Source: a virus (lineage: Duplodnaviria; Caudoviricetes). Taken from it: 64,000 nucleotides of DNA. Position 1 is the stretch's first letter. Each line of letters starts with the position of its first letter. The translations under genes were made by a program, and so were the position numbers. Below the pieces are notes generated by a model. It had not been told where the DNA came from. It did not search any database and saw only the letters and a program-made list of their open reading frames with translations. The DNA lies in IMG/VR virus record IMGVR_UViG_3300017965_000002, positions 7,254-71,253 of that record; one strand, written 5' to 3'. This document shows, one piece after another, positions 3,492 through 5,853 of this stretch.

Positions 3492-3795
3492 AACTAGCCT
3501 ACTTTCTTTTTTTAGGCGTGAAACACGCTAGCGGCGCTAGCGCGACAGAAGCACTTGCTTCCATGCCTAAACTTGTAAGGCAAAAAGCGGGCGGATGCAC
3601 ATGTTATTTTTGCATAGCAGCTATGCAGATGGACCCCCCGGGGTGACAACTAAACCGCGTCCGGCAGTTGTCGCCGGCGGCGTACCACATTCGAGCCTTC
3701 CCAAAAAACCATTCGGTCATCTAAAACCGACTTAAAATCTCAGATCGAGCGTTTTACGAAATCTGGTTCTCTCATCACAAACGGGGCACACCACA

Positions 3796-4284
3796 ATGGA
3801 CTACCTTATCTTACGTTGCCACCCACGCGATACCCTTCCCCTCCAAGCTGCCCACCCCAAACTCGAACTCCTCTGCCCCACTACGACTCTCCAAGTCCGC
3901 CGTGGTCCATCCCGCCAACGTACTACCCTCACCATCCCCATTCTCCCCTCCTTCCTCTTCTTCCCTCTCCCCAACCAACTCCCTTCCCGCCTTCCCTCCC
4001 GTCTCCACCTTATGAAACGCCCTTTCTCCCACTCCGTTTACGCCACATGCACCCTTAACGAAATCTCTGTCATGGTTACACATTACAGCACTCTTACCCC
4101 TAACACAGACTCCCCTTTCACCCCAGGCTCCAAAGTTAGAGTTACTGATGGCCTCCTTTGTGGCGTAACTGGAACCATTACGAATATTAGGACAAACGGA
4201 GATATCACATTGAAAATCCAAGAACATTTAGGATGGCAAATTAATACTTGCATCGTAAATGCTTCTGTGTTACGCTGCCTTTAG
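3796..4284 (+). CDS. NusG-family transcription regulator (NGN + KOW), probable late antiterminator
   Basis: NGN-like PILPSFLF motif and KOW motif FTPGSKVRVTDGLLCGVTGTI; first gene of the rightward operon. Confidence 0.8.
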   Translation: MDYLILRCHPRDTLPLQAAHPKLELLCPTTTLQVRRGPSRQRTTLTIPILPSFLFFPLPNQLPSRLPSRLHLMKRPFSHSVYATCTLNEISVMVTHYSTLTPNTDSPFTPGSKVRVTDGLLCGVTGTITNIRTNGDITLKIQEHLGWQINTCIVNASVLRCL

Positions 4285-4485
4285 TAGCTCTAGCGTCATG
4301 CTTTGTAGTAACTGACTTGCGGTGAGTAGTGGATTTGTTCACACACCGCTTAGCTTCCGGATCTCTGCATCCCCGATTCCCTGATGCAGTCATTCGGAAG
4401 CACAGTTAAAGTCGTGCCTTCTTCCCTCCGGTGGATAGTACGACTTTAGTAACTGGGTTTGGCGACTCCCGTCTACCTACCCAGC

Positions 4486-4527
4486 GCGGGGACGGACTTC
4501 TACTCCGTTGGACGTCCCCGCATTTTT
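4486..4527 (+). terminator. terminator-like hairpin
   Basis: GCGGGGACG/CGTCCCCGC 9-bp stem followed by ATTTTT. Confidence 0.55.
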
Positions 4528-4570
4528 CTCCATGCTCAGACTACGCCTACTCGACAGCGACCCGCGCCTT

Positions 4571-4612
4571 AAGACTGCCTTTGACCTCCCCCGGTTCTAG
4601 GCAGTCTTTTTT
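4571..4612 (+). terminator. strong intrinsic terminator just upstream of terS
   Basis: AAGACTGCCT/AGGCAGTCTT 10-bp perfect stem running into T7. Confidence 0.75.
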
Positions 4613-4629
4613 TGTGACTATATATCAGT

Positions 4630-5061
4630 ATGAACACGCAAGTTTACATCCCTCCCGTTAATCTGACTGCTGAGCTACAAAAGGCTCATCTTCAGAACAC
4701 ACTCACTGCTGATCAACATGCTGATTTGCGTACCCTTATATTAGATGCAGCGGCAGCGATTGGTTTTGATGGTAATGGGAGAGAGGGTCTTCTTGGCTAT
4801 CTGAAGTACGCTGCGAGCACCTATCCTAAGCAGTACATGGCGCTGATCTCTAAGGTGATGCCTCTCCAGGTTGATTCCAAATCTACCATTAACGTGATCG
4901 AGCATGTGAATATCGTTAGCGTTCCCGCTGATAGATATATGCCACCACAATCCACTACCCAAGGTCCTACGATTGATCACGTCCCCACTCCCGAATCCGT
5001 TCAGACGATTGAGGATCTCCTCAAAAATCCTACCCCTGTGAAACTTGACGAAACCGCTTGA
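4630..5061 (+). CDS. probable terminase small subunit
   Basis: GFDGNGREGLLGYLK..A...P..Y..L..KV.PLQV motif typical of alphaproteobacterial phage TerS-like proteins; upstream of TerL. Confidence 0.55.
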   Translation: MNTQVYIPPVNLTAELQKAHLQNTLTADQHADLRTLILDAAAAIGFDGNGREGLLGYLKYAASTYPKQYMALISKVMPLQVDSKSTINVIEHVNIVSVPADRYMPPQSTTQGPTIDHVPTPESVQTIEDLLKNPTPVKLDETA

Positions 5062-5097
5062 CCCACACTTGACCCACAACAGAAGGACACACTACCG

Positions 5098-5853
5098 ATG
5101 AAGAAGCTATTGCTGGCGACTGCCCTTTCACTTGCGCTTGCCAGCGGCGCAATCCACAACGCGAAAGCCGACATTCTTGGTGGGATTGACTGGACTCTTG
5201 CTGGTGCTGATGTTCTGACTGTCAGTCCAACGGCGCCTGGACAGCAAGTCACGAACTTGCCCTGCTTGATTTGTGGTGCGAACCAACCACAGCAGCCTGC
5301 CAACTTTGGTTACAATTTGTTCGGGAACACGGGCAACCTGAGCACGGTTCCGTTCTTCTCGACGTCAGTTGTAGGCGGTTCGCTTGGTCCTGATGTGTAT
5401 GGGGGTGTGACGTCTGGTTATTCGATTGCTGCTGGTTCGCCCTTCCTCACTGCACTCGGTGGCAATCTGACGTTCTCCGTCGGCGTGGACAGCAACCAGG
5501 CTGGCGGCGATACTCAGGTGCTGGAATCGTTCTGGTTTTTGAACTTCACAACCCAGACTGTCCTGGCGGTGTTCAGTCCCGGTCCAGGTGGCTACAACAT
5601 CGACCCGCTCAACAATGGAACCGGGTTTCCTGATTATACAATCTCTGGCTTTGATCTATCCGGTGTCAACGTTGGGGACCAGATCGGCTTTTTCGCACGC
5701 ATTACCAATGCGAACGATGGACCCGACTCGTTCTTCTTGCTGCCACAAGCAGTTCCCGGCCCTCTGGTTGGAGCTGGTTTGCCTGGGATTGCTGCTGCCT
5801 TGATGGCGTTGTTTGGCTTCCATCGCCTCCGTCGGCGCCGTGCGCTTGCGTAA
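5098..5853 (+). CDS. secreted protein with PEP-CTERM/VPLPA-CTERM-like sorting signal
   Basis: Signal peptide MKKLLLATALSLALASGAIHNAKA; C-terminal AVPGPLVGAGLPG, hydrophobic helix, RLRRRR. Confidence 0.8.
   Translation: MKKLLLATALSLALASGAIHNAKADILGGIDWTLAGADVLTVSPTAPGQQVTNLPCLICGANQPQQPANFGYNLFGNTGNLSTVPFFSTSVVGGSLGPDVYGGVTSGYSIAAGSPFLTALGGNLTFSVGVDSNQAGGDTQVLESFWFLNFTTQTVLAVFSPGPGGYNIDPLNNGTGFPDYTISGFDLSGVNVGDQIGFFARITNANDGPDSFFLLPQAVPGPLVGAGLPGIAAALMALFGFHRLRRRRALA

Follow-up and report, generated by a model that had tools for sequence, protein, structure and literature searches.

To our knowledge, the control of phage late genes has been worked out thoroughly in just a handful of models, namely the switches that rely on lambda Q, the T4 sigma factor, Mu C and P2 Ogr. 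What brings RfaH to its target is not RNA but a DNA element of 12 nt, ops, which lies in the non-template strand and has the consensus GGCGGTAGnnTG. Lambda Q and BrrG of the Bartonella GTA are DNA-binding proteins which load at the promoter via a sigma-dependent pause (10.1101/2024.11.20.624540). Long bacterial operons are among the known targets of NusG paralogues. The paralogues usually adjoin their target operon (PMC7819879), and rfaH-like genes have been noted on prophages (PMC7593976). The paralogue LoaP was shown to require a small leader hairpin and an intrinsic terminator in the dfn leader of Bacillus velezensis (PMC12691694). In addition, nut (boxA/boxB) and put are nascent phage-leader RNAs that make the polymerase ignore terminators (PMC9378689), while conAn of Gram-positive conjugative plasmids has, at the head of a long operon, a protein gene and then an RNA region of 260-600 bp, of which the RNA antiterminates and the protein gives processivity (PMC8191782).

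The window studied here is a stretch of 64,000 nt and covers bases 7254-71253 of an IMG/VR virus record of 71,253 bp, which CheckV rated complete. A gap of 345 nt separates a NusG/RfaH-like gene from a late operon of ~35 kb, which comprises packaging, head and tail genes (Table 1). We infer that positions 4283-4613 of the + strand encode a non-coding RNA of ~330 nt with six hairpins, the last of which is the terminator, transcribed from a promoter-like site at the end of the gene. With a probability of roughly one half, this RNA is the terminated leader of the late operon and the RNA partner of a NusG-paralogue antitermination switch. A cis-acting leader is favoured because the parts follow an order like that of lambda Q/PR'/6S RNA/tR', because the logic is that of LoaP, and because the locus resembles conAn.

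In the predicted layout, the order shared with lambda is an antiterminator gene, a promoter (promoter-like here) at its end, a terminated leader and the late genes, and the lambda leader measures 200-300 nt, compared with ~330 nt for the phage element here. However, no Q-family protein is present in this locus, whose protein is NusG/RfaH-like by PHROG and fold, and we know of no description of the lambda leader as a conserved structured RNA apart from its terminator. As with LoaP and dfn/mln, a specialised NusG paralogue is encoded beside a long target operon, and the leader terminator of that system is matched here by a 10-bp stem and 7 U at 4571-4613. In contrast, the LoaP element is one small UNCG hairpin, while 5-6 hairpins with C-rich loops extend over ~300 nt here, and an H1 loop of the UNCG type is found in three variants only. 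The LoaP target is an antibiotic gene cluster, whereas a phage late operon follows here; the phage NusG-like protein is not detectably an orthologue of LoaP. The same protein-gene-then-RNA layout is found in conAn, but host range and element type differ, and no relation in sequence is evident. Lambda N/nut and HK022 put are short, with one or two hairpins, and no sequence or model match connects them to the element here; moreover, lambda N does not belong to the NusG-like proteins, and put works without any protein. As for RfaH/ops, RfaH is the best fold match of the phage protein, and both systems concern a long horizontally mobile operon.

Table 1. Positions of the NusG-like gene, the parts of the RNA element and the first late genes in the window.
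Feature	Position	Strand	Description
NusG/RfaH-like gene	3796..4284	+	162 aa; NGN-like N-terminal and KOW-like C-terminal domain
-35-like hexamer TTGCAT	4248..4253	+	within codons Thr-Cys-Ile
Extended -10-like TGnTAnnnT (TGTTACGCT)	4268..4276	+	17 nt after the -35-like hexamer
Predicted transcription start	4281..4285 (~4283)	+	at the stop codon of the NusG-like gene; predicted only
H1	4319..4349	+	outer stem GCGRYG/CRYCGC; 5' internal loop ending UA
H2	4353..4401	+	long hairpin; covarying base, variable upper stem, C-rich apex (AUUCCC here)
H3	4405..4453	+	base is conserved GUUAAAGUCGUG ... AGUAAC; upper part variable
H4	4453..4484	+	variable hairpin, apex GACUCCCGUC; MFE fold
H5	4486..4521	+	9-bp covarying stem, invariant 18-nt apex GACUUCUACUCCGUUGGA
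Weakly structured linker	4522..4570	+	carries CUACUC motif
Intrinsic terminator	4571..4613	+	10-bp stem AAGACUGCCU/AGGCAGUCUU, structured C-rich apex, 7 U
Box TGACTATATATCAG	4615..4628	+	directly after the T-run, 1 nt before the start codon
First gene of late/packaging operon	4630..5061	+	phrog_11043, function unassigned
Large terminase terL	7276	+	late operon
Portal	8949	+	late operon
Prohead protease	10274	+	late operon
Major capsid protein	11058	+	late operon

The gene upstream of the gap probably encodes a NusG/RfaH-like protein, for which the scores are weak but consistent. The protein matches phrog_6386 ('transcription antiterminator') with an E value of 2e-6, and the profile of its 19 homologues matches Spt5/NusG KOW domains with an E value of 0.003, while no Pfam match of any kind was obtained for the protein. 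In the AF2 model, the NGN part reaches a pLDDT of 70-89 and the C-terminal domain is poorly modelled. The best PDB matches found by Foldseek are the RfaH structures 5ond and 2oug (prob 0.97-0.98, E ~3e-3), and the top matches also include NusG and 8f5g ('NusG-RNA complex'), which we take to be the LoaP-RNA structure. Scanning 185k GTDB genomes with the NusG-like profile returned no relative, and thus neither prophage copies nor a host assignment could be derived. The Atlas matches of a neighbouring PEP-CTERM protein, all of them viral clusters or a mixture of bacterial phyla, did not single out a host.

The first gene of the late operon had been labelled terS in the sequence-only reading, a label which was not borne out, as the gene has no Pfam family match and phrog_11043 is its sole PHROG match. 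Downstream of it the + strand genes are tightly packed. Over 4.5-43 kb, sigma-70-like promoter and terminator matches occur at a frequency not above that of shuffles, and this pattern in the late region is compatible with one long transcription unit. No tRNA or tmRNA was found by ARAGORN, and blastn of positions 3600-5100 against phage GenBank gave no match. An argument from leaderless mRNA was discarded as diagnostic, since a Shine-Dalgarno sequence is absent from most genes of this phage.

A protein search retrieved 19 homologues of the NusG-like gene, which all lie in the same genomic context, and further relatives were collected from the homologue contigs and by scanning IMG/VR as well as JGI metagenomes. 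The resulting set comprises about 17 distinct loci of a common modular architecture, sampled in soil and sediment viromes. The gene order in all loci is the NusG-like gene, a gap of 190-450 nt, small genes and the large terminase, and the modules of the gap are H1, H2, H3, one or two variable hairpins, H5 (in about half), a hairpin with a U-run, and the box. The element was found downstream of every NusG-like homologue with enough sequence. When IMG/VR was scanned with the H1 DNA pattern, blind to the protein, the NusG-like gene was linked in all 10 loci recovered: five were new, with the gene immediately before the element (cut off by the contig end in L043), and the remaining five were previously collected contigs with the NusG-like gene.

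The sequence-only reading had placed an array of tandem hairpins at 4319-4612, and H1 does start at 4319, with the terminator T-run ending at 4613. RNA folding of the + strand likewise returned the tandem arrangement, with six hairpins, and the MFE of positions 4285-4629 is -135.3 kcal/mol compared with -95.8 ± 5.1 kcal/mol for dinucleotide shuffles (z = -7.7), a value equalled by 0/100 shuffles. Furthermore, the structure recurs among relatives. In a MAFFT alignment of 12 sequences, which was not model-fitted, RNAalifold recovered H1 and the H2 base, where 10/20 pairs show compensatory double changes and 91% of cells are paired, compared with 39-51% in slid controls, and the score was reached by 0/500 shuffles. 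A model-fitted alignment of 18 distinct sequences gave 95.9% paired over 20 pairs and double changes in 11/20 of them, with 36-49% paired in the slid controls and 0/500 shuffles as high. The covariance model returned one hit per locus, always on the gene-sense strand (202 kb, both strands), and a single hit in the whole 71-kb genome. The earlier claims that stems differ while the structure recurs, and that selection acts on an RNA structure, are upheld by this covariation. The locus holds a conserved, single-copy RNA structure, which is under selection on the + strand and is tied to the NusG-like gene.

The modules differ in how they are conserved. H1 was found in every relative with the consensus GCGRYG, NN-UA, GUGGN, loop, NCAC, A, CRYCGC, that is, with an inner stem GUGGN/NCAC, a bulged A and a free apical loop; double compensatory changes affect 4/6 outer pairs and the closing inner pair, and a G-U pair of the inner stem is kept in 16/18 sequences. 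The base of H2 shows double changes in 6/9 pairs. At the base of H3, GTT[AG]A[AG]GTC[AG]T is present in 10/11 full-length elements scanned, and the AGUAAC motif recurs, while H4 is swapped for one or two unrelated hairpins in relatives. The H5 stem is 100% paired in 9 sequences, with double changes in 4/9 pairs and G-U intermediates, and its 18-nt apex is identical in 10/10 carriers; an alternative drawing of this apex has a 5-bp stem and a 7-nt loop, CUUCUAC, that resembles an anticodon loop. H5, although it is the best conserved of the modules, is missing from about half of the family (L002 and the groups of L009 and L011), so it is not essential to a shared mechanism, and relatives without it carry UCUUCUACUUCAA at the linker position, immediately 5' of the terminator. 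A strong hairpin with a U-run occupies the terminator position in 13/14 relatives, with unrelated stem sequences. The terminator of the window is missed by a simple promoter/terminator scanner because its loop exceeds 8 nt. A 76-aa ORF (4431-4661) overlaps the element, in a region that varies among relatives by non-triplet indels and whole-hairpin replacement.

In the covarying helices, G-U/U-G pairs outnumber A-C/C-A pairs by 35 to 5, which fixes the strand of the RNA as + and bears on two other explanations. The first, a minus-strand sponge of the CsrB/RsmZ kind showing GGA loops to CsrA/RsmE, had been put forward in the sequence-only reading, and the complements of 5/6 loops do contain GGA. 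On the minus strand, however, these pairs would become conserved mismatches, the fold is weaker (z = -4.8), no terminator is present, and the transcript would run antisense to the NusG-like gene; + is the strand of the terminator, of the promoter-like site and of every flanking gene. The claim is therefore abandoned as exceedingly improbable. A boxA candidate was also dropped, since it is the reverse complement of GUUAAAG that resembles the boxA core, and the minus strand would be needed. The second explanation, a site acting as DNA, such as a cos/pac packaging signal or a terminase-binding region, would suit an element just upstream of the packaging genes, and the invariant sequences of the H5 apex and of the box would be in keeping with DNA sites bound by a protein. 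Still, changes that preserve pairing, with G-U pairs on one strand, mark an RNA and not duplex DNA, and the record ends are located elsewhere, which makes this explanation highly improbable.

The 3' end of the NusG-like gene contains a conserved promoter-like site that is held at synonymous positions. The -35-like TTGCAT is present in 15/15 distinct relatives (as TTGCAC in L018), and the TG and TAnnnT of the -10-like site are kept in 15/15 relatives, where the variants TACGCT, TACAAT, TACAGT, TAAGGT and TATGCT occur despite residue changes. The codons ACT, TGC and ATC over the -35-like hexamer are invariant; the Cys codon in TTGCAT is TGC in 16/16, while other conserved Cys columns prefer TGT by 14:2. 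Codon-invariant columns number 11/18 in the last ~35 codons versus 0/33 upstream (Fisher p 7e-7). Since transcripts usually start ~7 nt beyond a -10 hexamer, the start here would be at ~4283. A mere ~10 nt separate the stop codon from H1 in L038 and L037, which leaves the inside of the NusG-like gene as the sole place for a promoter of the RNA. The simple promoter/terminator scanner also misses this embedded site. L022 is the closest relative, and over 280 nt its RNA does not differ from that of the window (100% identity), while the NusG-like gene shows 79.5% identity over its 5' two-thirds and 95.2% over its last 104 nt.

A structured 3' UTR or insulator without a specific partner, which stabilises the NusG-like mRNA and blocks early transcription into the late genes, could be proposed for an RNA that lies directly after a gene and ends in a strong terminator. 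Stabilisers, however, need neither an invariant 18-nt H5 apex nor a conserved H1 internal loop, the RNA is fully identical where the gene has diverged by 20%, and the embedded promoter-like site argues for separate transcription. This function is very unlikely to account for the element.

The box directly downstream of the terminator has no second copy in the window when up to 2 mismatches are allowed. Nearly all relatives have retained it, either as TGACTATATATCAG or as TGACTATAAGTATA, at a distance of 0-30 nt from the start codon that follows. A C-rich insert of 14-18 nt splits the box in L018 and L021, and the TGAC half survives in L018 alone, where the halves lie 18 nt apart, like -35 and -10. 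No extra copies of H1, H5 or the box were found elsewhere in the genome; being single-copy, they are not repeated promoters or recruitment sites, and the box was for the same reason rejected as a promoter for a phage RNAP. The box could still be a separate late promoter, in which case the RNA would be a stand-alone transcript and not a leader. It may, speculatively, be the counterpart of ops. An ops of the E. coli type is not present within 4250-4640 at up to 2 mismatches, and window-wide ops-like matches (47 versus 38.8 ± 7.3) are at chance level. The 5' arm of H1 loosely resembles ops, a likeness on which no claim is based here.

The apical loops of the RNA are rich in C. In the MFE fold of the window element they read CCCGAUUCCCU, CUCC, UCCC, UACUCC and UCCCCC. 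The repeated CUCC(C)GU loops described in the sequence-only reading hold good in the window, where CUC(2-5)G[GU] occurs 4 times against 0.44 expected and 0/500 shuffles reach 4; as a family feature they fail, since 13 relatives have only 0-3 occurrences, mostly just the copy within H5, so that the exact motif is peculiar to this phage. What the family shares is composition: over 85 loops from 14 elements, apical loops contain 47.6% C versus 30.4 ± 2.2% after shuffling and refolding, and CCC/YUCC is present in 42% of these loops versus 14 ± 4% in controls. YCCC or CUCC also occurs in all of the 17 H2 interiors that were scored (of 18 distinct alignment rows). The apical loops of H1 are diverse (UUUG, CUCG, UCCG, UUCG, CCCC, CCCCU, UUAG, UCAG, UAAC and GCAA), and three are UNCG.

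Several hairpins showing a short repeated loop motif are likewise known from RsaE/RoxS, RNAIII and CsrB/RsmZ. Unpaired UCCC/CCCC in several loops is a feature that the phage RNA has in common with RsaE/RNAIII, and the descriptive part of the earlier comparison with C-rich anti-SD-like loops agrees with the C content of the family. In contrast, the GGA loops of CsrB/RsmZ appear on the minus strand only, and all of these RNAs are chromosomal and trans-acting, with no Rfam match for the phage RNA.

Such loops raise the possibility of a stand-alone trans-acting sRNA, which would pair with G-rich ribosome-binding sites of the phage or host in the manner of RsaE, RoxS and RNAIII, or titrate a binder of C-rich RNA (such as Rho or a KH-domain protein), and whose tie to the NusG-like gene would reflect regulation or simply position. 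Consistent with this, the RNA is bracketed by a promoter-like site and a terminator like a separate gene, C-rich apical loops are strongly enriched across the family and in the H2 interiors, GGGG-type sequences stand upstream of several phage genes (e.g., the NusG-like gene and the capsid gene), and the box may be an independent late promoter. Against it, no target was identified and no loop-target covariation was seen; the parts conserved best (the internal loop and inner stem of H1 and the apex of H5) do not resemble C-rich seed loops, and it is a cis-element, not a trans-acting one, that would need to sit so strictly next to the NusG-like gene and directly before the late operon. We consider a trans-acting sRNA rather unlikely. 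An anecdotal 5-nt complementarity of the RNA to the region upstream of the NusG-like gene was also seen.

A broader proposal combines the two roles: an abundant phage regulatory RNA of a new class, with its own promoter, which forms an RNP with the NusG paralogue and captures, through its C-rich loops, a host factor that reads C-rich or G-rich RNA (such as Rho, NusA KH domains or ribosome-binding sites), thereby reprogramming host transcription or translation in trans and opening the late operon in cis. This is put forward tentatively and seems unlikely.

No named element matches the RNA, as the sequence-only reading had supposed. At gathering thresholds, Rfam 15 gave 0 hits over the whole window, put, EAR/epsC, CsrB/RsmZ, RsaE, 6S and pRNA included, and the riboswitch and ribozyme families likewise gave none; a permissive search of 4200-4700 returned two chance-level hits only (E 4.6 and 8.1), far below gathering. 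This bears on an RNA that acts on the polymerase alone, like HK022 put/EAR, where the NusG-like protein would add long-range processivity as in conAn. The layout of conAn (protein gene, structured RNA of several hundred nt, terminators, long operon; PMC8191782) is indeed the one seen here, and the RNA is large, consists of many modules and is more conserved than the protein. With no similarity to put or EAR-type families in Rfam, an RNA of this kind is distinctly unlikely; it differs from the favoured leader solely in which partner does the work.

According to the favoured antitermination leader, transcription would start at the promoter embedded in the last 40 nt of the NusG/RfaH-like gene, and the RNA would end at the strong intrinsic terminator abutting the first gene of the late operon. 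H1, the C-rich apex of H2, the base of H3 and, where present, H5 would form a nascent-RNA platform, via which the NusG paralogue, possibly with host Nus factors, would load onto RNA polymerase. Once the paralogue has accumulated, the polymerase would pass the terminator and traverse the late operon. Transcription from the embedded promoter, protein-RNA binding and antitermination are the steps that we infer. Recognition by the adjacent NusG paralogue had also been suggested from the sequence, and it is the best supported of the earlier readings, through the linked gene; the multi-copy recognition elements it assumed are not identical sites, since the conserved units (H1, the C-rich apex of H2, the base of H3, and H5) differ from one another. 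Several points count against the favoured mechanism: the box may be a separate late promoter, H5 is lacking in about half of the family, the scores behind the NusG-like assignment are weak, the leader has no ops of the E. coli type, and the H1 loops are mostly not UNCG, unlike the LoaP hairpin. In addition, co-variation of a C-terminal protein motif with H5 failed as a test: GWQIN/GWQFS was perfectly linked to the presence of H5 in 13 loci, but L032 and L038 broke the rule, and the link was rejected. Nor was a mutually exclusive antiterminator fold found in the RNA.

The RNA motif is absent from Rfam and from the literature searched, in which no phage late switch made of a NusG paralogue and a large structured RNA was found, and on the favoured reading it would belong to the processive-antitermination leader systems. 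The locus illustrates that a promoter-like site hidden in a coding region is detectable purely by suppressed synonymous change. If the favoured mechanism is true, the locus would represent a compact natural cassette of protein, RNA and terminator, which would aid the study of how NusG-family factors are recruited by RNA and might serve as a gate in synthetic biology, and the known non-coding RNAs of phages would gain a covariation-supported motif with unusual C-rich loops.

The sequence coding for the NGN-like N-terminal part of the NusG-like protein (window 3796-4180) shares only 79.5% identity with its counterpart in the closest relative, L022 (1501-1885), while the flanks share 95-100% (96% in the upstream region and 100% in the RNA element), a pattern attributable to recombination between mosaic genomes or to a polymerase-binding domain that evolves rapidly. 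The KOW-like C-terminal part appears as helices in the AlphaFold model at very low confidence (pLDDT <50). As the C-terminal domain of autoinhibited RfaH is helical, the predicted helices may point to fold switching, or the model may just be poor.

The divergent region upstream of the NusG-like gene (3492-3795) contains three motifs that relatives also conserve (see table), and resembles a stretch of operators and iterons that would serve early control. The hexamer TTGCAT is common to the palindrome and to the promoter-like site embedded in the 3' end of the NusG-like gene. As well, the 5' ends of several relatives' metagenome contigs (L009, L014, L015, L018, L033, and L034) fall 130-430 nt upstream of this gene, and the L018 contig starts within the C-run/G-run tract. 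These ends may represent an assembly break at the homopolymer palindrome, or may hint at a genome end.

Conserved motifs around the NusG-like gene and the terminator
Feature	Window position	Conservation
Palindrome TGCATAGCAGCTATGCA	3611-3627	Relatives
CCCCCCGGGG tract	3634-3643	Relatives
Repeat resembling AAAAACCATTCGGTCATC, 2-4 copies	~3703-3722 and ~3757-3776	Relatives
Box TGACTATATATCAG, directly 3' of the terminator T-run	4615-4628	Across the family

The NusG-like gene shows suppressed synonymous change over its final ~100 nt (4180-4284). This suppression reaches well past both promoter-like hexamers, e.g., over GATATCACATTGAAAATCC, and suggests that the coding sequence is overlapped by a further candidate element: a structured RNA, a site for a regulator, or an upstream element of the promoter.

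The invariant apex of hairpin H5 in the RNA element (4492-4508) has an alternative drawing in which ACGGA and UCCGU form a 5-bp stem capped by a 7-nt loop, CUUCUAC. This loop has U and A where a tRNA anticodon loop has U33 and A37, with UCU as the anticodon. The alternative stem competes with three pairs of the covarying outer stem. Among the relatives without H5, UCUUCUACUUCAA is unpaired and lies immediately 5' of the terminator.

The box between the terminator and the first late gene is a near-palindrome with one copy in the genome, and may act as a second promoter, a DNA pause or loading site, a site of processing, or a signal for translation. A C-rich insert of 14-18 nt, similar to the loop motif of hairpin H2 (CCCCAUYCC), splits the box in L018 and L021.

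Finally, most of the late genes (4630 onwards) lack a recognisable Shine-Dalgarno sequence, which points to a host making little use of such sequences.
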